A DNA stretch of 63,998 nucleotides, filler included, from Stramenopiles sp. TOSAG23-2 (GCA_900128395.1; 8 parts of 8 records of this genome joined end to end with filler, not necessarily neighbours in it), one strand, 5' to 3'; counted from the first letter of the whole stretch, positions 4,158 to 48,094 are shown. The notes: generated by a model from the sequence alone, not told the origin. Numbers and translations are program-made.

Positions 4158-4897
4158 GTTTGATCGCCTCGTTCTTAACTCTTTTCTCTGCGTACTTTCA
4201 CACAATTTATTCTCTCTTCTCCATCCATTGTCCTTCATACACTTCAGTATGACATTTTGCACATACATGTATGCCACACTGTTCCATCGAATGGCTTCAA
4301 AAAAATGATGAATATTTTATTAGGGGGGATTACTTTAAGGGAAAACGTAGATTTGGACATTGAAGATCTATAGTGTCCAGAGTAGGACTACTTATTTATA
4401 TTAAATTGAAAAGAACAAAGAAAATGATGAAGAATTTCTGGTGGCTGGTGGGCACCATTCGTACTTAAATACATTAAAATATAGGTATAATAGATATTTG
4501 ATAGCAGACATTCTATTTTAATTTGCATTTCTATAATAGTCTAATTTTGTTGTCATTTTTATTTTATCCTCGCCCGGGCTGGCGGGCTCGTAGCTCGACG
4601 ACAGCGTTTTCTGTCCTTCCAGCCTTCCTCCTGTATGGCAATTCTTCTTCCTCTAATTATTATAATAATAGCTGGATAGTAGTAATAGTATTATCAAAAG
4701 AAGTCTATGGTATTAAATATTCATATATCGATATATATATATATATTAATATACAGTATGTACTGGCGTATGGAGAAAGAAAGGAAAGGAAATAGATAGT
4801 AAAGACAAAATAAATAACCCCTGAAAGACAACAAACGTTTCGAAAAAGTAAATAAAAATAAAAAACACCACTAAAAAAACACCCGCAAAAAAATATC

Positions 4898-5428
4898 ATG
4901 ATGAAATTAAACTCCTCTTCTTCTTGGATTATTATCTATGTATTATTATTTTTTGTAACAAGTACTATTAAAGCACACGAATTTACAAAATGTGACCCCC
5001 CTGTAGAGGATCAACTAAAAGTAAACGCGGTCGCTTTCAGTCCAGACCCTGTTGAACCTGGAAAACCTCTCGTAGTAAAAATCTCTGGAGGTCCAACTGA
5101 TGTCGAAGTGACTGGTGGAAAAGCAACATTATCCGTATTACTCTTTGGAACGAAAGTGATCAACATCGATTTTGATGTCTGTACAGAATTTGGTGTAAAA
5201 TGTCCTGTTGCAAAGGGAGAGAATTGGAATGGTGCTATAACTTATGACATACCGTCTGAAATTCCTTCTGGAATTACTGCAACAGCTCAAGTTGACATTA
5301 AAGATGCCGCTGGTAATGATTTATCATGTTTTCAAATGGATGTAAAAACAGGAAGTGATAACGATGTTTCATATTTTTCACAAGTAATACGCCGTTTACG
5401 TGCAATATCTTCAGCCCTTTTATGGTAA
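4898..5428 (+). CDS. ML-domain (MD-2/NPC2-like) lipid/sterol-binding secreted or lysosomal protein
   Basis: Signal peptide, then FTKC...SPDPVEPGKPL...FDVCTEFGVKCPVAKG...IPSEIPSG...LSCF, typical of PG/PI-transfer/NPC2 ML domains. Confidence 0.85.
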   Translation: MMKLNSSSSWIIIYVLLFFVTSTIKAHEFTKCDPPVEDQLKVNAVAFSPDPVEPGKPLVVKISGGPTDVEVTGGKATLSVLLFGTKVINIDFDVCTEFGVKCPVAKGENWNGAITYDIPSEIPSGITATAQVDIKDAAGNDLSCFQMDVKTGSDNDVSYFSQVIRRLRAISSALLW

Positions 5429-24992: not shown

Positions 24993-25726
24993 GAGGGGAA
25001 GAGAGAGGGAGGAAATAGAGAAAGTATATATTATGTTTGCGTGGAAAGAGTATTATAATTCTATGTTTTTTATAATATTTTCTAAATGCAACACAAATGG
25101 GTTTCTTTTCTGCTGGCTGATCTTTAATAGACAGAAATATTAGTACCAATACAATATACTAAGGGCCAAGAACGACTCGCTGTTCGCTGTGTTATAGATA
25201 GGTAAAAATTGATTTATCAAAGTATGAAATTTATTACTTAAGATGATCTCTTCCAGTTACATAGGAAAAATATAAGTACTAATAGGTATCAAACTTACGT
25301 ATTATAAATATGTAAAAAAAAGTCTGTAGCATCACATCATCACATCAGTACTGTGGGAGTACTTCCATGATTGTTTGAATGTGATTGGATTATTATCTTA
25401 TTTGCATTATTAGTCGTTATTAATATTAGGCAAATATTAAATCAATGATGAATAGTGTTATTTTATTGAATTTATTGACGTCGTCGCGAATGAAATTTTT
25501 AATGAAAAAAATGAATAAAATTTTTTATTTTAATTAAAATTTATAATTTCTTAGTTCATACGTGAAGGATATACATCGCCTTTATATCAGATTGGTAGAT
25601 ATACAACACGTGTTTGTATGATTATTATTGCTATTATCTGTAATTGAATATAGATAGATAGATAAGTGATAAGCACTTGGTGTTTTGTGTGTGTGTGTGT
25701 GTAGGTATATTAATAGTAGTAGTACA

Positions 25727-28700
25727 ATGTCACGTCCACCACCAAAGCCAACACCACCATCTTCGGCATATATGCAAGCTGATGATGGAAAGAAACGTAA
25801 GAAAGACAGAGTGGATAAACCATTAGCAAGGCAGCCACCAAAACGCCCTGCTGGTACAAAACCATCGTACCAGCCAGAAGGGCTAGGTAGAAAACAAATT
25901 GGTGCTCCTGGTAAGCCGCCACCCAAGCATGATCCTCCTGTTGCTGCTTCTTCAGCACCAGGAATGCCACCTGTTCGTGTGAGGGAGAATATAAGTAAGA
26001 AGGAAAAGCCACCTTTGCCAATGGGGCCTCCACCAACAGAAGGTCAAAAGCAAGCACCAGCAGGTGTTGTACCACACTTCGCACAAGCAAAAGTGGCGAT
26101 GCAACAAGGTCATCTAGGTGCTCCTACTGATATGAGAATGGCACCTCCATCCCAACCACATCCAGTCCAACATCAACAAATGCAACAGCAACGACAACAA
26201 ATGCAACAACAAAGATTTGGTGATGCACCTTTACAACAACAACAACAACAACAACAACAATACATGCAACAACCTGGTGTAAAAGCGCCACCGTTGGGTC
26301 CACCTCCCACATCAGCAATGGTTTCACAACAACAGCATCAACATGGTCCTCCTTCTCAAATACCAATGCAAATGAAGCCACCGTCTATTGCGCCGCCAAC
26401 ATCTGCACCAACATCTTCGTTGCAGCCGCCAACAATGTTAACACCTCCAACACAAATGGCACCTCCATTATCAATACCACCATCTCGTCCAACAATGCAA
26501 TTACCTCGTGGACCAGCGCCTCCATCCATTGCACCGCCAAAACAAGGTCAACCAAATCTATTAGCACGTCGTGTTCCTGGATCAACAGTAACGGGACAAA
26601 GATTGCCGCCAAAAGGCATCCCTCCTCCGGCATCAAGAGCAGGTCCATCAAGAGGGCCGAAGCCGCCTGGTATTATGGCTCCATCACAACAACAACATAT
26701 AATGCCACCATCACAGCAACAACAGATAATGCCGCCATCACAACAACAACAAATAATGCCACCACAACAACAAAGGCAAATCATGCCACCAAGGCCTGGC
26801 GCTAGGCCACCATCATCAAAACGGCCACCCCCTAGTCAACAACGGCCGCCGCCATCCCAACGACCACCCGTATGTAATATTTCTATATATATATATATAT
26901 AAATATACATTCTGAATATTTCAATTTGAAGTTTCATTTACTAACCAAATCATATTAAATATATCCGTATAGCCATCATCCGCTCAACGGCCTGCCCCTC
27001 GAGGACCAAGGGGATCAGTTCAACGGCCACCAGTAAGTACAAAACACATATTAACCTTTGATTTTCAAATTTACTAACATGTTTTATTCATTTATTTTAT
27101 TTATTTACAAAGCCATCTGGATCGAGACCACCGGTAAGTTAAATCAAATTCCAAAAGTCTATAAAATAAATACTAACAATTATATCTTCATATTTAAAAA
27201 CAGCCATCATCCGCTCAAAGGCCTGCCCCTCGAGGACCAAGGGGATCAGTACAACGGCCACCAGTAAGTACAAAACACATATTAACCTTTGATTTTCAAA
27301 TTTACTAACATGTTTTATTCATTTATTTTATTTATTTACAAAGCCATCTGGATCGAGACCACCAGTAAGTTAAATCAAATTCCAAAAATCTATATAATAA
27401 ATACTAACAATTATATCTTCATATTTAAAAACAGCCATCATCCGCTCAAAGGCCTGCCCCTCGAGGACCAAGGGGATCAGCACAACGGCCACCAGTAAGT
27501 ACAAAACATATATAAACCTTTGATTTTCAAATTTACTAACATGTTTTATTCATTTATTTTATTTATTTACAAAGCCATCTGGATCTAGACCACCGGTAAG
27601 TTAAATCAAATTCCAAAAATCTATATAATAAATACTAACAATAATTTCATCATAATTAATAAATAAACTTATATATAGCCATCAAGCCAAGTTCCAAGAG
27701 GCCCAGGTCAAAAAAGAGCACCGCCTTCAGCAAGACCTCCCGCGCCAGGTCAACAAAGACGAATGCCACCATCTGCTAGACCAATCGCGCCAGGACAACA
27801 ACAAAGACGGGTGCCGCCACCTCAACAACAAGCTGGCCCAGTAAGTATTAAAAACATTAGATCAATATTATTATTTTTCTTGTTTATATCATACTAACCA
27901 ATATATTCACACATTGAAAATCATAAATGAAGCCGGGAAGAAAGCCTGTAAGTATATTAAACATACAATTAAACAAGATAATATATTGACAAACATCAAA
28001 ACTAACATGTTATTATTCAAGCCACCACAACAGCAAGGACGAGCACCGCCCCCTCAGCAACAAGGACGATCGCCGCCTCCTTTGCAACAAGGACGAGCAC
28101 CTGTAAGTAAACCATTATCATTTCAATATAATTTTCAAAATGAAACTCTAAAATATATAATTTAACATCAATTACTAACTGAGAAAAATTATTTAGCCAC
28201 CGCAAACTCAAGGTCGTCAACCACCACCACAATCAGTAAAGGGACGAGTTCCCCCACCGGGCAAAGCCCCTGGACGTGCGCCTGTAAGTATATACATACA
28301 TCTTATTTTCATTTAATTATATCATTTATCAAAAAATGAAAAATATTGTTACATATTTTTTTTTCATCCAATTAATACATTTTTAAAATATTAAAATTTA
28401 CTAACATAAAAAAACTGAAAATTATAAATTAAAAATTAAAAATTAGCCGCCTGGTATACCACCATCACGTGCTCCTCCACCTGGCCAAGATGATGATGAT
28501 ATGGATGGACCAGTACCACCAAAAGAAAAAGCACCAGGTCGACCAATCCCGCCTGGAAAACCACCACCGGCTCGTCCATTACCGCCAGGTGCTAAGAAGC
28601 CTGATGAAGATGTACCGAAACCTCCAGAGGAAGATGTTCCAATTGTAAGTTTTTATTTATAAAAATTGAAAAAAAATCAAACTAACATTTTTATATGATC

Positions 28701-31500
28701 AATTTAATAATAATAAAGGAGGAAGAAGACGATGCACCACCTCCTCCAATGGGTGCGCCACCACAAGACGACGATGGCGATGAAGAAGGGGCACCACCTC
28801 CGCCTCCTCCCCCAGATGAAGATGGTCCGCCGCCGTACGTAAAATAAATATAACTTTGTTCTTCACTGACTAAATCATGTTTGAAATTTCTTACTTCACT
28901 GAAAAATATTAACTAAAAATTTAATATAATTTACTAACATGTAAAAAAATTAAATATAAATATTTATAGACCACCACCGCCGCCGCCACCAGATAAGAAA
29001 GAGATACCGCCGTTAGCGGGAAGAATACGCGTGATATTGTTAGAGGCGAGAGATGTTACGGCCCACAACGCGCTAGGCATGAAGCAGCCAGGGACGAAAA
29101 TAGATCCCTACGTGAAGATGACGTTGGGGACCCATAAAAAGGCCCCAACGAAGAAATCGAAGGTGAAGAAGAAGCAGAAGAACGCTTTTAGCCTCGAAGA
29201 TGAACTCATCGAGTTCGACATAACAGACCCTGGTGTCTACATTAGTAAGAATGGTGACGATGATGAAATTGCATTGACCATCCAAGTATGGGATTCGAAC
29301 AGGTTCGCGGACGAACTGTTAGGTGAAATAACGATTTCAGTTCTGGATTTTATGGAGCAGGAATCAGAGGCATATGGTGTATTGAATGAGAATAAGTCGA
29401 TAGAATGGTGGCCTCTAACCTTCACAAGCAAGCAAGGTACACAACCTGCTGGTGAATTACGTTTACAAGTTGAATTCCTACCATCATGGGAAGGTATATT
29501 AGTGATCACTTGTTATGAAGGACGTAATTTGAAAAATATGGTAAGTGGAACTTTGAAAGAAATCTACTCTTTTGTACTTTTATAGAATATTATCTCTAAC
29601 ATAATATACACTTTGAATAATATACGACAAAAAAATATCACAGGAATTAATTGGAAAACAAGACCCATATTGTAAATTCACCCTCGGAAAAACCAAGGAA
29701 AAAACCAAGACGGTGAAAAAAGGCGGAACAAATCCATATTTTAACGAAGAAGAATGTGTATTTTGGATTGGTAAAGATTCATGGCCAAATCCATTAGTTT
29801 TTTCCTGTTTTGATGAAGATATCGGTAGTGATGATTTGATCGGTGGCCGTAGATTTAGTTTATTGCCACTTTTCACCCGTAAAGAACCAATGCATGATTG
29901 GTGGGAAATTACAAATAAAGGTAAAAAAACTGGTGAAGTTCAATTAAAATTAGAATTTTTCCCTGCTGGTCAATTACAAATAAATTGTCATGCTGGCCGT
30001 AATTTAATTGATACAGATACATTTGGACGTCAAGATCCATATGTAATATTCCGTATGAACACGCCATTAGTAAAATTAGAACGAAGAACTAAAACCGATA
30101 CGGATGGTGGTACAGAACCAGTTTGGGAAGAAATTAATCATATGCCAATTGCACATCAATATGAAATGATTATAGATGTGATGGATGAAGATATGATTGG
30201 CTCTGACGATAAAATTGGATCTGCCGCAATATCATTACTACCTGTATATAAAAATGGTTTTGCTGATCAATGGATACCAATTGGACGTAAAGATAAATGG
30301 GGAAAACGTATAAGTGCTGGTGAAATACATGTTGAATTTGATTTCGTTGGTAAACCAGGTGTTGCATATCCACAACGGCGTCCTGAAATTGATAGTTTTG
30401 ATGATTCCAACAGAAGAGATAGAGTGGCAGAAGCAAAAAAAGAAAAAGAAGAAGCGGAAAAAGCACATGATGAATTTCATGCTGAATTAGGTAGTGATAC
30501 ACGTGCAGATTCTACTGCAACTGGTAAAAAACCTGGTACAGGTAAAGCTGAAGATGCAATACCAGAAGAAGCAAAACCAACACGTCCACCTGGATCATCA
30601 ATGGAATTTACTGATCAAGAAATTAAAGATGCATTTAACTTTTTAGATCTTGATAAAAATGGTTTTATTGGTGCTGCTGAAATACGTCATATTTTAATTT
30701 GCATGGGAGAATTAATAACAGATGAAGAAGTCGATGAAATGATACGTATGGTTGATACAGATGGTGATGGACAAGTATCGTTTGCTGAATTTTTCTTATT
30801 GGTAGTGCATCCTGATCCTGGGGCACCCGACTTTAATCCTGAAAAATTAAAAGAATTAGCTGCACCACCACCACCAGATGGTTCGTCTAAAGTACAAGTA
30901 GCGGAAGCAAAAATGTCTGCAGCTGAACGTGGAAAATTAATGGCATTAAAACAAGAAAAGAAACGTTTATTAGCACAATTTGCAGAAGAAAATCGTGTAC
31001 GTGCATCATTCGTAAGAGATTGTTATGATCGATGGAGAAAATTATGTCAACAATCCAAAGAATTAGGTGATGATGAAGTTACTTTTGATGAATGGATACG
31101 ATGTGCACGTGTAGAACCAACTGGTGAAAATAAACAACTATTTCATTTATACGATGCTGCAGATGGTACAGCAGAAGGTAAAATTGATATGCGTGAATTT
31201 TTATTAGGTATTAATAATTTTAGTGGTGAATCAAGAGCACATAAAGTGACATTTACATTTAAATTATACGATGAAGATAATAATGGTTTTTTAGTTGAAG
31301 AAGAATTAGTAAAAATTTTACGTGCTACACACATGGCTACAGATGATAAACAAGTATTAAAAAAAGCAAAAACTATTTTACGACAAGTGGATAAAGATGG
31401 TGATGGTAAAGTATCACGTGAAGAATTTGCTGTAGTAGCAGAGAAATTCCCAAATATTTTATTTCCACGAATGCAAGCAAAGAAGAAGGAGGAGGATTAG
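25727..31500 (+). CDS. ~1490-aa protein with a Pro/Gln-rich N-terminus, three C2 domains and EF-hand (calmodulin/calcineurin-B-like) modules; 15 exons
   Basis: Exons read by hand: 25727-26869, 26973-27032, 27113-27133, 27204-27263, 27344-27364, 27435-27494, 27575-27595, 27679-27840, 27933-27947, 28022-28102, 28197-28283, 28447-28644, 28719-28834, 28970-29540, 29644-31500. Introns are GTA(A/T/C)GT...CTAAC...AG and the frame is continuous. C2 motifs (DPY, D-x-D...DD) and EF loops ([48 protein letters not shown]). Confidence 0.85.
26973..27660 (+). repeat. 231-bp exon-intron-exon-intron unit repeated three times
   Basis: Units start at 26973, 27204 and 27435 and differ by a few substitutions. 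Confidence 0.9.
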
Positions 31501-32070
31501 AGAGGATTTAGACATATTGGAAATTGAAAAAAACGAGGATTGGAACACGGTATATATGCATATGCCACGAATGCAAGCAAAGAAGAAGGAGGAGGATTAG
31601 AGAGGATTTAGACATATTGGAAATTGAAAAAAACGAGGATTGGAACACGGTATATATGCATATGAACGTAGAAACGTATGCCAGATGCCAGCTGGCCAGG
31701 TATGCATACTTCGAACTTCTCGCGAGTTTAAAATTGTTTAAAAATTTAAAATTTTAGTGCTCGTAAAATCGTAAATATTTTTTAGAGTACACTGAAAATA
31801 TATTTGAAAATATGAAATATTGAAATATTAATGTGAAAACTCAACTCTCCTAATACTCTCTTCTATTCGCTATTCGCGAACATTTGATAAAACAATAAAA
31901 ATTTTGTACACTTTTACACGCGCGGTGTTTACGGAAAACACTCTACGTAAATATTTATACGAGTACCGTGTATTATTAACGCACACATCTCTGATCTCTG
32001 CTCATATATCAATCACACATCAACTGGTCAAAATTTCCAACCTTGGATCTTGCCTTAATTTTTGATCCAA

Positions 32071-40188: not shown

Positions 40189-40351
40189 TTTTTCCCCTTC
40201 TTTTTCCTTTTCTTCTTTTTCTTCCTTAATTTGACTGTACACATAATACCAAACTCACCGGTGGGTCATATGTCATATGACAAATAATTTAACCATCCTT
40301 AATTTAAAATGTAAAAAAAATACACGACTTCATACTTCATAAATATGAATA

Positions 40352-43300
40352 TCAGTTTTTTGTAACACGAAATCCAGAACCTCTAAGTATAGATATTAAA
40401 TTCTTCTTCCTATATTCTTGTAATGAAGGATAAGTAAAATCATCCATTTTCTTTTTACAGCATTGAATAATATTTAAAATATTTTGGTTTGTCAAAGAAA
40501 AGATTCTTGAAAGTTCTTTCACCGCATATTTTCTTCTTAATTCAAATGATTGATAATGATCGTAATTTTCATCAATGCAAGGGTGGTTCCAAGTGTACGA
40601 TGTGTCAATTAAATCATTTAAACGCATGGATCTCGAGACGAAAATAAAAGGAATCCTATTTTGTACGAAAAAGTTTACTGTAGATATTTCAACTAAATTA
40701 TTCGCTGTTTCATTTATATAAATACCAATCAAAAATGCTGGAAGTTCTTCAAGATTAAGACTTTGCTTAATAATTCTGCCAGAATCACTTTCTCGCATGA
40801 CCATTTTAAAAATAAAGTTATTCATCATATTTCTTTCCAATAGTATATATTTATCTACACTATTTAATAAATGCGACAAATCATCTGACTTATGGGTTAG
40901 TGCAATGATAAGTATTGGGTCTGAATTTACTACTTCTTCCTGTTTAGCTAAACTTTTTTTTTCATAATTGGTCGTTATTTGAAAAAAATGAAAGGGAAAA
41001 TTAACAATATTTTTGCACCTATTTATTCCTCCAAGACTAATATATTGTACTTGTGAACTTGCAACTTTCAATAAAAACAGATGATAATCAATATTCTTTT
41101 TCAGATTTTCATTGCATATAAAATGATCCATATTAAAAAATGAAACGACGGATGCGTTCCCTCTCCTTACAATAAATTCGTTTAATTTTTTTCTTAAATA
41201 TAGAATTACACGAACGTTGCCATTTGGCTCTTTTTGTATGTTATATATATGTAATTCATACAATATATCAAACGGTAAATGGACCAACATCAAAACATTA
41301 CTTATACCAAATGTATTTGTGTACTTTGTTTTTAACATTAATTCCAATCGTTTACAATCTTTACCGTAGCATACTATACCATTCGTTTTATTTTCATCTC
41401 CAAAGTTATAAACATTGTTTAAATTTACAGTCTCAATTATCTCCCACTTTTGCTTAGTGTTGGGTAAGTTACAAGGTTCCAGATATAGCCCATCTTTATT
41501 ACCAGACATGCATTTTTCTTTTCCAAATTTCAGAAACATGAAAGAGGCAACAACTTCGATTGAAAACATCGTATGACTAAAACGATCGCATGAGGATATG
41601 TACAAAATATCGTTGTTATAAATGTTCTTGCGCGCACCTAAGCATTGTTTTGTAAGTACATTTTGCAATTGCGCATCTAACGAATCCCCAATACTTAAAA
41701 GTTTCCATAATTGATCTTCCCAGTCTGGATTACAATTAGATACACCAATACCATCATGGGCAACATCATGAAAAAAACACAAATTATCATTGTTTGACCA
41801 AATGTTGCGCAATAGGTTTTGCTTCTGAATGTCCTTTCTATTCAACATATTTACAATAGCGTTTTGACGGATTAAGCTGGAAAAATAACCAAAATGACTA
41901 TAGGAAAAGTATCTATTTTTTATTTCGTTGTTTAAAATGCTCTTTTCACGGAAAACGGTTTGATCGCCCGATAATGCATCTTTCATTTGCCCTGAAACAT
42001 CTATTCCTGAAAATTTATTAATAACAAATAGATTCCTACTACGAAATACAAGGGATACAACCGGTGGACCAATATAAATGGTAATGGATCGAAGCTTTAA
42101 TGCCAATTGCACGAAATGCAGTAACTCCCCGAATGTTTTATTTTCATCTTCTTCTATAATGATTGTCTTAAATTGTTGACATAACAAAATGAACGACTCG
42201 ACATAGGTACTCGCATTTACTTTTCTATGTATAATTTTGCGATTAGGATGAGATTGTGCAACCAGCCTAATTGTTGCTTGAAGATTAAATTTACCCTTCG
42301 ATGTATCTAATAGATACAGAATATCGTTAGATTGAGATGAAACATCGTTTTGCTTAAATGTTTTCCATTCTACCTCTAGCATTCTATTCCAATGAATATG
42401 AAACACATTAGGTAAGTATATATGTTTTGTGAAGCTTTCAAAATTAAACAATTTATCAGTACATTGTGTAATTACAACTCCAAATGGAGAAACTTCATTT
42501 GTACCGGTGTCTCTTATCCCACACTGTGTTAAATAGTGGTATACAACAAGCCCGGAAAAGTTTGTATATCTTTTTTCTTCACAGGCATGTAATACGCTTG
42601 AGAAGTGAATATTACTGAATGCATTATCGTTTTGTTTGCAGGATATGACAGAAATATCTTTCCCCCAAATTGTCCTTACGGTTGTTAACAGCCTCTTGAC
42701 ACACTCTTTGCAAATAAATACCTCGGCCATTTTCATCAATCTTGCATTTTCATTTACTTCGTATTTATGGCTTTGTAGCTTGGGAATTTTATGATACAAT
42801 TTCAATTTTGATTTTGCTATTTCGCAACTAGCATATGAATAAACTTTGCTGCTATAGCTGGCACACATTGAACACCTCACAGGCAAATTAACATTTCTAT
42901 TCTTATAGATCCTATTCTCTTCCATGTAGTCAAAAGATTGGTTAAGAATATTTACTTTTTGAAAAATCGCAACCTTTTTAGCGGTATGCAAGGCAATGCT
43001 TGCAATAAAATTTGCGGAAAGGTCTTTACTCTTAATTTTGTTTATCAAGGCATATTGTCCGATTTCCCATAAAAGATTTGTATCAATTCCATAAAAAGCT
43101 GGTGTAAATGCCTTCGCATGCATGGTTTCTAGTTGACAAATACTTTCTCCAATATTGTTGAGGGAAGGTTTATCTTCGATGCAACTCAACGGGTCACCCA
43201 AAATGCCATCTCTTAAACATGGCACAACAATATCGACATTGTATTTTGGCAAAACATATGCCATATCGTCCACTGATCCACCGTTTTCTAATGAAATATA

Positions 43301-43906
43301 TTGACTGCTATCAACAAAGAATACACAATTATAATCCTCATTAATTTTAGAATACCATTTCCGTTTCCCTTGATTCCTAAAGTAATAATATGCCTCAATA
43401 ATGCCAAGACCTGAACAATGGTTACATTCAATAACACGCACGTTTTGTCGTTGGTAAAGATATGATTCTGTTTCGAAAGATTTTGTATGCGCAAATACAA
43501 AATCAATATGCTCATAATCTTTCATAATTAATTTTTTAAACCAAGTAGATTTCACAGCATTGTCATTGAATGCCTTTACAATAAAAAGAATTTTACCGTG
43601 CTTATTAGCTTTTGTAAGCACGCGTTGTGGCAAAAATGGAGACATCGACAATTCCATATAGACATCTTCAATTTTGTTCCGAAGGAAGAAATTATCAAGA
43701 TGCTTATTGTAAAGGTAAATGTTTATAGATAGTAGACATAAAGACAATGAAAAAAGAACCACAATGCCGTAAAATACAACTGAAGTTGACGGTAGATTCT
43801 TTTTCTTTCTTAGTTGTTTTATGCACCGTTCATTACAATATCTAGGGCATTTTACATATTTGACAGCGTTGGAGGGTATTATCGATATAAACATGTTGAT
43901 TCTCAT
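40352..43906 (-). CDS. Multi-domain glycosyltransferase-like type II membrane protein with a ricin-B lectin domain (mirror copy)
   Basis: The protein is identical to 44377..47931. Confidence 0.55.
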   Translation of the reverse strand: MRINMFISIIPSNAVKYVKCPRYCNERCIKQLRKKKNLPSTSVVFYGIVVLFSLSLCLLSINIYLYNKHLDNFFLRNKIEDVYMELSMSPFLPQRVLTKANKHGKILFIVKAFNDNAVKSTWFKKLIMKDYEHIDFVFAHTKSFETESYLYQRQNVRVIECNHCSGLGIIEAYYYFRNQGKRKWYSKINEDYNCVFFVDSSQYISLENGGSVDDMAYVLPKYNVDIVVPCLRDGILGDPLSCIEDKPSLNNIGESICQLETMHAKAFTPAFYGIDTNLLWEIGQYALINKIKSKDLSANFIASIALHTAKKVAIFQKVNILNQSFDYMEENRIYKNRNVNLPVRCSMCASYSSKVYSYASCEIAKSKLKLYHKIPKLQSHKYEVNENARLMKMAEVFICKECVKRLLTTVRTIWGKDISVISCKQNDNAFSNIHFSSVLHACEEKRYTNFSGLVVYHYLTQCGIRDTGTNEVSPFGVVITQCTDKLFNFESFTKHIYLPNVFHIHWNRMLEVEWKTFKQNDVSSQSNDILYLLDTSKGKFNLQATIRLVAQSHPNRKIIHRKVNASTYVESFILLCQQFKTIIIEEDENKTFGELLHFVQLALKLRSITIYIGPPVVSLVFRSRNLFVINKFSGIDVSGQMKDALSGDQTVFREKSILNNEIKNRYFSYSHFGYFSSLIRQNAIVNMLNRKDIQKQNLLRNIWSNNDNLCFFHDVAHDGIGVSNCNPDWEDQLWKLLSIGDSLDAQLQNVLTKQCLGARKNIYNNDILYISSCDRFSHTMFSIEVVASFMFLKFGKEKCMSGNKDGLYLEPCNLPNTKQKWEIIETVNLNNVYNFGDENKTNGIVCYGKDCKRLELMLKTKYTNTFGISNVLMLVHLPFDILYELHIYNIQKEPNGNVRVILYLRKKLNEFIVRRGNASVVSFFNMDHFICNENLKKNIDYHLFLLKVASSQVQYISLGGINRCKNIVNFPFHFFQITTNYEKKSLAKQEEVVNSDPILIIALTHKSDDLSHLLNSVDKYILLERNMMNNFIFKMVMRESDSGRIIKQSLNLEELPAFLIGIYINETANNLVEISTVNFFVQNRIPFIFVSRSMRLNDLIDTSYTWNHPCIDENYDHYQSFELRRKYAVKELSRIFSLTNQNILNIIQCCKKKMDDFTYPSLQEYRKKNLISILRGSGFRVTKN

Positions 43907-44376
43907 AAAGCTTTGAATGGTTGGATGGCAATAAATGCTTTAGCAGATGCTAATTTAGATACTTTGTTGCTGTTAGTGGTTATGTTTGACGTTGTTGATC
44001 TTAGATTATATATTGTTGCTATTATTAGATTTATTATTATTGTGCCTATATTGTCAATGCTATTTGCCTTACATCCTATTGATGTACCTGCTATTTTCAC
44101 CTTACAACGATATTCAATGGTGTGTTCAAATTTGGTGCATATATGCACCAAATTTGAACACACCATTGAATATCGTTGTAAGGTGAAAATAGCAGGTACA
44201 TCAATAGGATGTAAGGCAAATAGCATTGACAATATAGGCACAATAATAATAAATCTAATAATAGCAACAATATATAATCTAAGATCAACAACGTCAAACA
44301 TAACCACTAACAGCAACAAAGTATCTAAATTAGCATCTGCTAAAGCATTTATTGCCATCCAACCATTCAAAGCTTT

Positions 44377-47300
44377 ATGAGAATCAACATGTTTATATCG
44401 ATAATACCCTCCAACGCTGTCAAATATGTAAAATGCCCTAGATATTGTAATGAACGGTGCATAAAACAACTAAGAAAGAAAAAGAATCTACCGTCAACTT
44501 CAGTTGTATTTTACGGCATTGTGGTTCTTTTTTCATTGTCTTTATGTCTACTATCTATAAACATTTACCTTTACAATAAGCATCTTGATAATTTCTTCCT
44601 TCGGAACAAAATTGAAGATGTCTATATGGAATTGTCGATGTCTCCATTTTTGCCACAACGCGTGCTTACAAAAGCTAATAAGCACGGTAAAATTCTTTTT
44701 ATTGTAAAGGCATTCAATGACAATGCTGTGAAATCTACTTGGTTTAAAAAATTAATTATGAAAGATTATGAGCATATTGATTTTGTATTTGCGCATACAA
44801 AATCTTTCGAAACAGAATCATATCTTTACCAACGACAAAACGTGCGTGTTATTGAATGTAACCATTGTTCAGGTCTTGGCATTATTGAGGCATATTATTA
44901 CTTTAGGAATCAAGGGAAACGGAAATGGTATTCTAAAATTAATGAGGATTATAATTGTGTATTCTTTGTTGATAGCAGTCAATATATTTCATTAGAAAAC
45001 GGTGGATCAGTGGACGATATGGCATATGTTTTGCCAAAATACAATGTCGATATTGTTGTGCCATGTTTAAGAGATGGCATTTTGGGTGACCCGTTGAGTT
45101 GCATCGAAGATAAACCTTCCCTCAACAATATTGGAGAAAGTATTTGTCAACTAGAAACCATGCATGCGAAGGCATTTACACCAGCTTTTTATGGAATTGA
45201 TACAAATCTTTTATGGGAAATCGGACAATATGCCTTGATAAACAAAATTAAGAGTAAAGACCTTTCCGCAAATTTTATTGCAAGCATTGCCTTGCATACC
45301 GCTAAAAAGGTTGCGATTTTTCAAAAAGTAAATATTCTTAACCAATCTTTTGACTACATGGAAGAGAATAGGATCTATAAGAATAGAAATGTTAATTTGC
45401 CTGTGAGGTGTTCAATGTGTGCCAGCTATAGCAGCAAAGTTTATTCATATGCTAGTTGCGAAATAGCAAAATCAAAATTGAAATTGTATCATAAAATTCC
45501 CAAGCTACAAAGCCATAAATACGAAGTAAATGAAAATGCAAGATTGATGAAAATGGCCGAGGTATTTATTTGCAAAGAGTGTGTCAAGAGGCTGTTAACA
45601 ACCGTAAGGACAATTTGGGGGAAAGATATTTCTGTCATATCCTGCAAACAAAACGATAATGCATTCAGTAATATTCACTTCTCAAGCGTATTACATGCCT
45701 GTGAAGAAAAAAGATATACAAACTTTTCCGGGCTTGTTGTATACCACTATTTAACACAGTGTGGGATAAGAGACACCGGTACAAATGAAGTTTCTCCATT
45801 TGGAGTTGTAATTACACAATGTACTGATAAATTGTTTAATTTTGAAAGCTTCACAAAACATATATACTTACCTAATGTGTTTCATATTCATTGGAATAGA
45901 ATGCTAGAGGTAGAATGGAAAACATTTAAGCAAAACGATGTTTCATCTCAATCTAACGATATTCTGTATCTATTAGATACATCGAAGGGTAAATTTAATC
46001 TTCAAGCAACAATTAGGCTGGTTGCACAATCTCATCCTAATCGCAAAATTATACATAGAAAAGTAAATGCGAGTACCTATGTCGAGTCGTTCATTTTGTT
46101 ATGTCAACAATTTAAGACAATCATTATAGAAGAAGATGAAAATAAAACATTCGGGGAGTTACTGCATTTCGTGCAATTGGCATTAAAGCTTCGATCCATT
46201 ACCATTTATATTGGTCCACCGGTTGTATCCCTTGTATTTCGTAGTAGGAATCTATTTGTTATTAATAAATTTTCAGGAATAGATGTTTCAGGGCAAATGA
46301 AAGATGCATTATCGGGCGATCAAACCGTTTTCCGTGAAAAGAGCATTTTAAACAACGAAATAAAAAATAGATACTTTTCCTATAGTCATTTTGGTTATTT
46401 TTCCAGCTTAATCCGTCAAAACGCTATTGTAAATATGTTGAATAGAAAGGACATTCAGAAGCAAAACCTATTGCGCAACATTTGGTCAAACAATGATAAT
46501 TTGTGTTTTTTTCATGATGTTGCCCATGATGGTATTGGTGTATCTAATTGTAATCCAGACTGGGAAGATCAATTATGGAAACTTTTAAGTATTGGGGATT
46601 CGTTAGATGCGCAATTGCAAAATGTACTTACAAAACAATGCTTAGGTGCGCGCAAGAACATTTATAACAACGATATTTTGTACATATCCTCATGCGATCG
46701 TTTTAGTCATACGATGTTTTCAATCGAAGTTGTTGCCTCTTTCATGTTTCTGAAATTTGGAAAAGAAAAATGCATGTCTGGTAATAAAGATGGGCTATAT
46801 CTGGAACCTTGTAACTTACCCAACACTAAGCAAAAGTGGGAGATAATTGAGACTGTAAATTTAAACAATGTTTATAACTTTGGAGATGAAAATAAAACGA
46901 ATGGTATAGTATGCTACGGTAAAGATTGTAAACGATTGGAATTAATGTTAAAAACAAAGTACACAAATACATTTGGTATAAGTAATGTTTTGATGTTGGT
47001 CCATTTACCGTTTGATATATTGTATGAATTACATATATATAACATACAAAAAGAGCCAAATGGCAACGTTCGTGTAATTCTATATTTAAGAAAAAAATTA
47101 AACGAATTTATTGTAAGGAGAGGGAACGCATCCGTCGTTTCATTTTTTAATATGGATCATTTTATATGCAATGAAAATCTGAAAAAGAATATTGATTATC
47201 ATCTGTTTTTATTGAAAGTTGCAAGTTCACAAGTACAATATATTAGTCTTGGAGGAATAAATAGGTGCAAAAATATTGTTAATTTTCCCTTTCATTTTTT

Positions 47301-47931
47301 TCAAATAACGACCAATTATGAAAAAAAAAGTTTAGCTAAACAGGAAGAAGTAGTAAATTCAGACCCAATACTTATCATTGCACTAACCCATAAGTCAGAT
47401 GATTTGTCGCATTTATTAAATAGTGTAGATAAATATATACTATTGGAAAGAAATATGATGAATAACTTTATTTTTAAAATGGTCATGCGAGAAAGTGATT
47501 CTGGCAGAATTATTAAGCAAAGTCTTAATCTTGAAGAACTTCCAGCATTTTTGATTGGTATTTATATAAATGAAACAGCGAATAATTTAGTTGAAATATC
47601 TACAGTAAACTTTTTCGTACAAAATAGGATTCCTTTTATTTTCGTCTCGAGATCCATGCGTTTAAATGATTTAATTGACACATCGTACACTTGGAACCAC
47701 CCTTGCATTGATGAAAATTACGATCATTATCAATCATTTGAATTAAGAAGAAAATATGCGGTGAAAGAACTTTCAAGAATCTTTTCTTTGACAAACCAAA
47801 ATATTTTAAATATTATTCAATGCTGTAAAAAGAAAATGGATGATTTTACTTATCCTTCATTACAAGAATATAGGAAGAAGAATTTAATATCTATACTTAG
47901 AGGTTCTGGATTTCGTGTTACAAAAAACTGA
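44377..47931 (+). CDS. Multi-domain glycosyltransferase-like type II membrane protein with a ricin-B lectin domain
   Basis: N-terminal TM segment; a DUF707/GT-A-like segment (YNCVFFVDSS...KYNVDIVVPCL); a degenerate GT10-like segment (QFKTIIIEE...ITIYIGPP); beta-trefoil repeats (CNPDWEDQLW, QCL, CNLPNTKQKW). Confidence 0.55.
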   Translation: MRINMFISIIPSNAVKYVKCPRYCNERCIKQLRKKKNLPSTSVVFYGIVVLFSLSLCLLSINIYLYNKHLDNFFLRNKIEDVYMELSMSPFLPQRVLTKANKHGKILFIVKAFNDNAVKSTWFKKLIMKDYEHIDFVFAHTKSFETESYLYQRQNVRVIECNHCSGLGIIEAYYYFRNQGKRKWYSKINEDYNCVFFVDSSQYISLENGGSVDDMAYVLPKYNVDIVVPCLRDGILGDPLSCIEDKPSLNNIGESICQLETMHAKAFTPAFYGIDTNLLWEIGQYALINKIKSKDLSANFIASIALHTAKKVAIFQKVNILNQSFDYMEENRIYKNRNVNLPVRCSMCASYSSKVYSYASCEIAKSKLKLYHKIPKLQSHKYEVNENARLMKMAEVFICKECVKRLLTTVRTIWGKDISVISCKQNDNAFSNIHFSSVLHACEEKRYTNFSGLVVYHYLTQCGIRDTGTNEVSPFGVVITQCTDKLFNFESFTKHIYLPNVFHIHWNRMLEVEWKTFKQNDVSSQSNDILYLLDTSKGKFNLQATIRLVAQSHPNRKIIHRKVNASTYVESFILLCQQFKTIIIEEDENKTFGELLHFVQLALKLRSITIYIGPPVVSLVFRSRNLFVINKFSGIDVSGQMKDALSGDQTVFREKSILNNEIKNRYFSYSHFGYFSSLIRQNAIVNMLNRKDIQKQNLLRNIWSNNDNLCFFHDVAHDGIGVSNCNPDWEDQLWKLLSIGDSLDAQLQNVLTKQCLGARKNIYNNDILYISSCDRFSHTMFSIEVVASFMFLKFGKEKCMSGNKDGLYLEPCNLPNTKQKWEIIETVNLNNVYNFGDENKTNGIVCYGKDCKRLELMLKTKYTNTFGISNVLMLVHLPFDILYELHIYNIQKEPNGNVRVILYLRKKLNEFIVRRGNASVVSFFNMDHFICNENLKKNIDYHLFLLKVASSQVQYISLGGINRCKNIVNFPFHFFQITTNYEKKSLAKQEEVVNSDPILIIALTHKSDDLSHLLNSVDKYILLERNMMNNFIFKMVMRESDSGRIIKQSLNLEELPAFLIGIYINETANNLVEISTVNFFVQNRIPFIFVSRSMRLNDLIDTSYTWNHPCIDENYDHYQSFELRRKYAVKELSRIFSLTNQNILNIIQCCKKKMDDFTYPSLQEYRKKNLISILRGSGFRVTKN

Positions 47932-48094
47932 TATTCATATTTATGAAGTATGAAGTCGTGTATTTTTTTTACATTTTAAATTAAGGATGGTTAAATTATT
48001 TGTCATATGACATATGACCCACCGGTGAGTTTGGTATTATGTGTACAGTCAAATTAAGGAAGAAAAAGAAGAAAAGGAAAAAGAAGGGGATATG

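Follow-up and report, generated by a model that had tools for sequence, protein, structure and literature searches.

A dense intron array in a stramenopile C2 and EF-hand gene, partly multiplied by tandem duplication and absent from the close relatives compared

Well-documented recent intron gains are rare, and the mechanisms behind them are disputed. Fibrillar collagen genes carry 54-bp exons that start and end on whole codons and stem from the duplication of an exon-intron unit, and in titin PEVK-type arrays symmetric exons are used as cassette exons. For the gain of introns themselves, the relevant parts of PMC9860276 and PMC11282704 describe introners, which are transposon-derived multi-copy introns of aquatic protists; Table 1 of PMC3443670 lists indirect evidence, from Oikopleura and Mycosphaerella, for intron transposition by reverse splicing within the same transcript; and passages of PMC3443670 and PMC4974935 deal with introns gained when an exon segment containing AGGT is duplicated in tandem in the genome. 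Here we describe a gene for a C2 and EF-hand protein, located at 25727-31500 on the + strand of the window (the whole stretch of DNA analyzed, 63,998 nucleotides (nt) long), in which 14 introns interrupt a sequence that is uninterrupted in sister-species relatives at the intron sites that these cover. As judged from the sequences compared, the intron array appears to be lineage-specific and absent from relatives, and this is the main new result. We lean towards a recent lineage-specific intron gain, partly multiplied by the copying of exon-intron units within a proline repeat, as a somewhat probable account of its origin.

An earlier note on this DNA had placed 13 introns within 2.1 kb (26870-28969), and both reading of the sequence and scripted splicing found the same 13 there. 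A fourteenth intron lies beyond the span of that note, so that the gene comprises 15 exons and 14 introns (Table 1), and its spliced frame encodes 1490 amino acids (aa) from the ATG at 25727 to the stop codon ending at 31500. Scripted splicing also returned the lengths given for exons 2-12 (60, 21, 60, 21, 60, 21, 162, 15, 81, 87, and 198 nt, all multiples of 3) and the presence of CCN codons on both sides of introns 1-11, each of which is in phase 0. The intron ends are GT and AG in 14 of 14 cases; the donor is GTAAGT in 12 of them, the others being GTATGT and GTACGT, and every intron has a CTAAC branch box (ACTAAC in 13) situated 13-41 nt upstream of the AG used. In 13 of the 14 this is the first AG after the box, the exception passing over an AG that lies 2 nt from it. 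Six introns (2, 4, 6, 8, 9, and 12) use an AAG acceptor, which is normally disfavoured as a 3' splice site; these acceptors fit the rule of the first AG after the branch box, and RNA confirms those of introns 8, 9, and 12. The introns are 70-163 nt long and have a G+C content (GC) of 12-24%, compared with 53-63% in the exons. Each holds an in-frame stop codon, and their removal gives one open frame, collinear with the uninterrupted open reading frame (ORF) of the relative L003. All 14 are ordinary U2-type GT-AG spliceosomal introns with strong yeast-like signals (GTAAGT, TACTAAC, first AG). An Rfam scan of 26500-30000 at E<=1 returned no RNA family, and so no sign of intron-hosted small nucleolar RNAs. 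Within the introns, we noted a (TA)n run in intron 1 (26879-26909) and five copies of the 7-nt sequence AAAAATT in intron 11 (28410-28445); introns seem to grow by microsatellite expansion.

Splicing was examined in RNA contigs from four marine metatranscriptomes belonging to four different studies (runs X1, X3, X4, and X6), which were aligned to 25600-30800. These contigs match the window at 92-100% identity and come from several strains; as assembled contigs, they cannot show minor isoforms. Junctions were found for 8 of the 14 introns, either as joints or as contiguous exon reads, and the junctions predicted in the earlier note are in use for both kinds of microexon. A GT..AG joint from 27132/3 to 27203/4, corresponding to the 70-nt intron after the 21-nt microexon, is present in X1 and X6, its short side being 20 letters. 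Intron 10 is joined in X1, introns 12 and 13 in X1 and X6 (intron 12 also in loose ends of X3 and X4), and intron 14 in all four runs. One loose end in X1 runs unbroken from the end of exon 8 through the whole 15-nt microexon to the start of exon 10, showing that introns 8 and 9 are spliced, and a second X1 loose end contains the junction between a 60-nt and a 21-nt exon in a variant repeat unit (donor side, intron 2/4 type). RNA cover is absent or thin over 27688-28035 in the four runs, which is evidence of nothing.

Exon structures were then compared with those of orthologues, as the earlier note had suggested, and the array was not found in close relatives at the intron sites that each of them covers. 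L001, from the same species, shows 95.8% DNA identity to window positions 28552-32070, with a synonymous divergence (dS) of 0.079, and contains introns 12, 13, and 14, intron 13 at 94% identity. L003, a genomic contig of 6 kb, begins with a single open frame of 3186 nt encoding 1062 aa (nonsynonymous divergence, dN, 0.046; synonymous sites saturated). This frame is collinear with the spliced protein of the window from the repeats of intron types 2/3 to the end, and we found no AT-rich interruption in it at the sites of intron types 2/3 to 14. L002 (84.5% DNA identity, dS 1.16) begins at the equivalent of 29406 and is without intron 14. A convergent neighbouring gene is common to L002 and L003, indicating that both are genomic DNA and not complementary DNA (cDNA). 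Among other relatives, P0001 (contigs up to 24.5 kb) and P0081 (29.6 kb) run without a break through the sites of introns 12-14, as does P0002 (42.3 kb) through the intron-14 site. Of the distant homologues, L004 consists of one 1237-aa ORF; in L005 and L006 the introns are placed differently. Intron 12 is absent from L003, P0001, and P0081, intron 13 from the same three and from L004 and L006, and intron 14 from L002, L003, P0001, P0002, P0003, L004, L005, and L006.

A maximum likelihood tree rooted on L004 has the topology (P0006,(P0002,(P0003,((P0001,P0005),((window,L001),(L002,L003)))))), with support of 100/98 for window plus L001 and for the clade of window, L001, L002, and L003. Grouping all intron-free close relatives into one clade is rejected by an approximately unbiased (AU) test (p = 1.3e-5); if the introns had been lost, this would therefore have happened at least twice independently. 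The simplest reading would be gain on the branch leading to the window and L001. Alternatively, the introns could predate the split from L002 and L003, with the relatives losing them wholesale via spliced cDNA and the window's species keeping an intron-rich allele, a history that we consider improbable. Intron-poor lineages usually lose introns by recombination with spliced cDNA, a single such event can strip all introns, and the pairing of L002 with L003 would need only one loss. The neighbouring gene also shows active turnover, with an intron difference between L002 and L003, and the 0.36-0.56 introns per gene reported for two MAST-4 (marine stramenopile group 4) assemblies in the relevant part of PMC5269757 imply efficient loss. 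Among proteins of the window's own species (P0004 cluster), P0089 (770 aa, on a 2.5-kb contig) is an intron-14-free form, continuous across that site, which fits an old origin if it represents an intron-free allele and not a cDNA. Against an old origin, the intron-free relatives are not one clade by the AU test, so that the introns would have to be lost completely on two to four separate occasions, on top of an equal number of gains; none of the introns is found in the distant homologues L004, L005, and L006; and the most recent visible event is a multiplication, not a loss.

Several side observations concern these relatives. The convergent neighbour gene is one 681-aa ORF in L002 (2478-4520); in L003 it is split by two canonical introns on the minus strand, at approximately 4499-4626 and 5104-5163 (GTACGT...CCTAAC...CAG and GTAAGT...GCTAAC...CAG), so intron presence or absence varies between these sister species in a second gene. 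P0093 (626 aa, window's species, P0004 cluster) is an ORF in which the tail of intron 14 is read as coding sequence. The match of L001 to the window ends after 32070, with different downstream genes there (L001 3395-6261), which points to a structural variant or else to a chimeric join in one of the two assemblies.

Part of the array has been multiplied by tandem duplication. Exons 2-7 and introns 2-7 constitute three copies of a 231-bp unit with the order 60-nt exon, 80-nt intron, 21-nt microexon, 70-nt intron (the third copy ends in an 83-nt intron), and repeat search and alignment show the later copies to be 98% and 94% identical to the first. Introns 2-7 are two introns copied three times, very recently. 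The proposal of the earlier note that the pattern arose by repeated exon-intron duplication thus holds for introns 2-7 and fails for introns 12-14, which lie in unique sequence. For introns 1 and 8-11, an older duplication is plausible in view of their identical place in the repeat unit. Introns 9-11 share both their repeat-unit position and a CCT codon: CCT precedes introns 9, 10, and 11, and other Pro codons occupy the four intron-free unit boundaries in exons 10-11 (Fisher p = 0.029). When intron-to-intron similarity was measured with the splice signals masked, 6 of 78 pairs reached p<=0.05 compared with 3.9 expected, and one of the six is the known pair of introns 3 and 7. Whole-sequence shuffles had pointed to intron homology (z up to 5.5, for intron 2 versus intron 9), a signal that vanished after the splice signals were masked. 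Similarity among the older introns may have decayed, given a dS above 1 to the nearest intron-free relative.

The introns are strongly concentrated in this gene. A motif scan of both strands detected 14 introns in this 5.8-kb gene and no more than 7 distinct candidates in the remaining 58 kb of the window (binomial p = 1.5e-10, or 3.8e-7 without the four duplicated copies), bearing out the excess described in the earlier note. The window is gene-dense: ORFs of at least 150 aa span 68% of it, and ten of the longest hold complete ordinary eukaryotic domains in single ORFs.

The position of the introns between proline codons could in principle follow from local proline frequency. Of all codon boundaries, a share of 0.20 in the array region and of 0.14 in the whole Pro-rich N-terminal part lies between two prolines. 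Eleven of 11 introns at Pro/Pro junctions (the slash marks the intron) give p ~2e-8, and the 7 non-duplicated Pro/Pro introns among 9 give p ~3e-4 if they are independent, so that local proline content is insufficient to explain the bias provided that the introns are independent events. The Pro/Pro introns all lie at boundaries of proline repeat units, R-P-P/P-S for introns 1-7 and R-x-P/P-P for introns 9-11, the latter being boundaries of a 27-nt (9-aa) unit, PPxxxGRxP. Since they lie at repeat-unit boundaries, they are not independent samples, and unit duplication probably explains the bias. A literature search found no published description of introns at Pro/Pro junctions.

From these observations the following sequence of events can be proposed. 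The ancestor of the window's species and its sister species would have had an uninterrupted gene, and the introns would have been gained on the window branch. A few founder introns would have inserted at a proline repeat-unit boundary (R-x-P/P-P or R-P-P/P-S), after which unequal crossing-over in this fast-changing repeat would have copied exon-intron units. Unit copying would account for the shared phase 0, the Pro/Pro junctions, and the internal exons being multiples of three. The latest event would be the triplication of a unit of two exons and two introns, still 94-98% identical, and introns 12-14 would represent separate gains in unique sequence.

How the founder introns were placed was approached through the signatures expected of known mechanisms. 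No copy of any intron was found outside the gene in the 64-kb window and six loci, and intron 1 matches the rest of the window in blastn only at (TA)n runs. None of the 25 inverted pairs listed (31 were found) joins both ends of one intron, as terminal inverted repeats would. No target-site duplication of 3 bp or more was detected, occupied sites having as many Pro codons as the L003 empty sites and the unit boundaries without an intron, and reading of the junctions of introns 12-14 revealed no direct repeats. Tandem duplication of an AGGT segment was rejected, given the 12-24% GC of the introns versus 53-63% in the exons and the lack of any exon-to-intron repeat family. With no introner signature found in the window and loci and the AGGT model a poor fit, the remaining account is precise insertion of a few founder introns and their later multiplication by unequal crossing-over in the repeat; proposed insertion routes are listed in PMC3443670.

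These results bear on a second possibility, in which the introns were inserted independently by a gene-local process with a preference for Pro/Pro junctions, and tandem duplication added only the last four copies. Excised introns could have been reverse-spliced into the transcript of the gene itself, with subsequent reverse transcription and recombination; another candidate is an introner-like element that has escaped recognition. The excess of Pro/Pro introns over the local proline expectation is in its favour if the introns are independent, as are the mutual dissimilarity of the older introns and the gain of at least three introns (12-14) outside the repeats, when the rest of the window holds so few candidates. 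The precise sites, with equal Pro codon counts whether occupied or empty, are those predicted by reverse splicing; insertion into a gene's own mRNA is a route proposed in the corresponding part of PMC3443670, and introners are common in aquatic protists according to the pertinent section of PMC9860276. Independent local insertion is nevertheless unlikely in our view, for the lack of a second intron copy, terminal inverted repeats, and target-site duplications speaks against it, as does the placement of all Pro/Pro introns at repeat-unit boundaries, where they do not count as independent. Moreover, introns 12 and 14 are not at Pro codons, which excludes a strict site requirement, and none of the other intron candidates in the window and loci is at a CCN/CCN junction. 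In its most explicit form, this possibility is a local burst of at least 8-10 founder gains since the sister split, precise, without target duplication, and preferring Pro/Pro junctions, with reverse splicing as candidate mechanism. We put this forward only tentatively; if true, the burst would be a natural, datable example of non-transposon intron gain with a new site preference.

Our preferred reading, recent gain with partial multiplication by unit copying, has to be weighed against a number of points. Introns 1 and 8-11 are without mutual similarity once the splice signals are masked, so that their duplication is no more than plausible, and introns 12-14, located in unique sequence, imply at least three independent gains in one gene beyond duplication. 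These three are the least explained part of the array, and they keep a gene-local, possibly site-preferring mechanism alive as a rival. L003 is the only close comparator for introns 1-11 and is cut off at its 5' end, the pairing of L002 with L003 is weakly supported (72/67), and the absence of the introns from intron-poor relatives could also stem from one or two wholesale losses by recombination with cDNA. In addition, the RNA contigs of the four runs, which mix strains, yielded no joint for introns 1, 7, and 11.

The earlier note had further proposed that the symmetric exons act as in-frame cassettes, with exon skipping tuning how long the Pro-rich linker is. Exons 2-12 are multiples of 3 with phase-0 flanks, so any skip would stay in frame, and the length of the N-terminal region varies among homologues. 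We nonetheless regard such regulation as very improbable. The symmetry follows from the shared phase 0 of the introns and needs no selection, and sister species manage without these introns, which are therefore dispensable for the protein. No exon-skipping joint was present in the contigs of the four RNA runs, which drop rare forms; two non-canonical joints (26546 to 26717 and 26791 to 27204), considered as extra introns or as skipping, coincide with strain-divergent stretches or loose ends and not with exon boundaries. Short introns with strong signals suggest intron definition, a mode of splicing in which exons are seldom skipped. Constitutive removal by this mode, which also accommodates microexons of 15 and 21 nt, is probable for these introns. 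RNA contigs of different runs contain alternative versions of the Gln/Pro repeats (26546-26830 and 27204-27263), as replaced stretches or loose ends, indicating that the low-complexity region varies between co-occurring strains. L003 and the window likewise have repeat units of different type and number, and such differences across species and strains are expected from frequent unequal crossing-over. Linker length most likely varies at the DNA level by changes in repeat number, not by exon skipping.

The protein has a Gln/Pro-rich N-terminal part of 690 aa, followed by three C2 domains and EF-hand pairs. Pfam matches (C2, E = 1.5e-11 and 1.2e-28; EF-hand_7, E = 2.5e-28) agree with the C2 and EF-hand identity assigned in the earlier note, and orthologues with the matching order of C2 before EF-hand exist, those named among 79 protein matches being from oomycetes, Hondaea, Aureococcus, and Chrysophaeum. 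The product is a conserved stramenopile Ca2+-binding protein with three C2 domains and EF-hands. For the low-complexity exon 1, relatives among longer proteins were sought and 0 of 8000 scored candidates reached E<=0.001, which is weak evidence only; scans of genome contigs and viral contigs with alignment A1 gave no relative. P0094, a EukProt gene model of 1130 aa from a species like that of L003, has the N-terminus of the window's protein and misses about 300 aa of the repeat region encoded by L003; repeats were probably collapsed or spliced out in the model or in its underlying assembly.

The 90% cluster of P0001 includes a EukProt protein named as MAST-4. For two MAST-4 single-cell assemblies, the part of PMC5269757 concerned gives 33.9% and 44.1% GC with 0.56 and 0.36 introns per gene, respectively; the MAST-4 population paper PMC13724720 says nothing about introns or GC. 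The GC of the window (~28-40% per 2 kb) and of L003 (43.5%) fits these assembly figures, and the organism is probably a MAST-4-like stramenopile. Elsewhere, the window contains a perfect (100%) 7.9-kb palindrome at 40193-48090, in which 40193-44183 is the exact reverse complement of 44100-48090, holding two identical ORFs of 1195 aa, neither of which matches Pfam. The palindrome has the look of a chimera from assembly or amplification rather than of a biological feature; if so, the sequence may come from an amplified single-cell assembly.

Table 1 Features of the intron-rich gene (positions counted in the window; a slash marks the intron between codons).
Feature	Position	Strand	Description
Exon 1	25727-26869	+	1143 nt, rich in Pro and Gln; intron-free despite many Pro-Pro sites; RNA contigs on parts, with strain variants
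Intron 1	26870-26972	+	103 nt, GTATGT...TACTAAC...TAG, phase 0, CCC/CCA; no RNA joint reported
Tandem array, 3 x 231 bp	26971-27663	+	exons 2-7 and introns 2-7; Tandem Repeats Finder period 231, 3.0 copies, 96% matches
Introns 2, 3, 4	27033-27112, 27134-27203, 27264-27343	+	phase 0, CCN/CCN, in tandem array
21-nt microexon (exon 3)	27113-27133	+	copies at 27344-27364 and 27575-27595
Introns 5, 6, 7	27365-27434, 27495-27574, 27596-27678	+	phase 0, CCN/CCN, in tandem array
Intron 8	27841-27932	+	92 nt, AAG acceptor, phase 0, CCA/CCG; RNA-confirmed
15-nt microexon (exon 9)	27933-27947	+	encodes PGRKP; joined to both neighbour exons in one X1 RNA contig
Intron 9	27948-28021	+	74 nt, AAG acceptor, phase 0, CCT/CCA; RNA-confirmed
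Intron 10	28103-28196	+	94 nt, phase 0, CCT/CCA; RNA joint 28102 to 28197 in X1
Intron 11	28284-28446	+	163 nt, 12% GC, 7-nt tandem repeat inside, phase 0, CCT/CCG; no RNA joint reported
Intron 12	28645-28718	+	74 nt, AAG acceptor, phase 0, ATT/GAG, unique sequence
Intron 13	28835-28969	+	135 nt, GTACGT, phase 2 within Pro codon; poly-Pro run just before first C2
Exon 14	28970-29540	+	first C2 domain, Pfam E = 1.5e-11
Intron 14	29541-29643	+	103 nt, TCTAAC box, phase 0, ATG/GAA, between C2 domains
Last exon	29644-31500	+	two C2 domains, EF-hand pairs, stop codon; Pfam, alignment A1

This locus offers intron-free and intron-laden versions of one gene in sister species of an abundant, uncultured group of marine predators. 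A multiplication step is preserved there in nearly its original state, three or more additional gains lie in unique sequence, and the organism splices microexons of 15 and 21 nt. Metagenomes and metatranscriptomes already available would allow direct tests of how introns arise and spread in an intron-poor genome.

Compared with the systems described so far, the gene resembles titin PEVK in having a proline-rich disordered spacer built from many short in-frame exons; unlike in titin, no alternative splicing was observed in the RNA contigs, and the short introns with strong signals argue for constitutive splicing. With introners it shares episodic recent gain in a marine unicellular eukaryote and short, efficiently spliced introns, but the sequence examined contains no outside copies, terminal inverted repeats, or target-site duplications of at least 3 bp, and the gains are concentrated in one gene. 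As in AGGT duplication, a tandem duplication altered the number of introns; there, the new intron is duplicated exon sequence, whereas here pre-existing introns were copied together with their exons. Reverse-splicing cases show the same precise insertion without target duplication, several new introns per gene, and complete splice signals; they were recognised by the similarity between donor and new introns, whereas here only the tandem copies are similar. Collagen-type arrays likewise combine a low-complexity repeat protein, one intron phase, the splitting of the same codon pair, and exon lengths that are multiples of the repeat. The present array differs from them in being young and apparently lineage-specific, in residing in an intron-poor protist, and in possessing microexons of 15 and 21 nt together with three gains in unique sequence.

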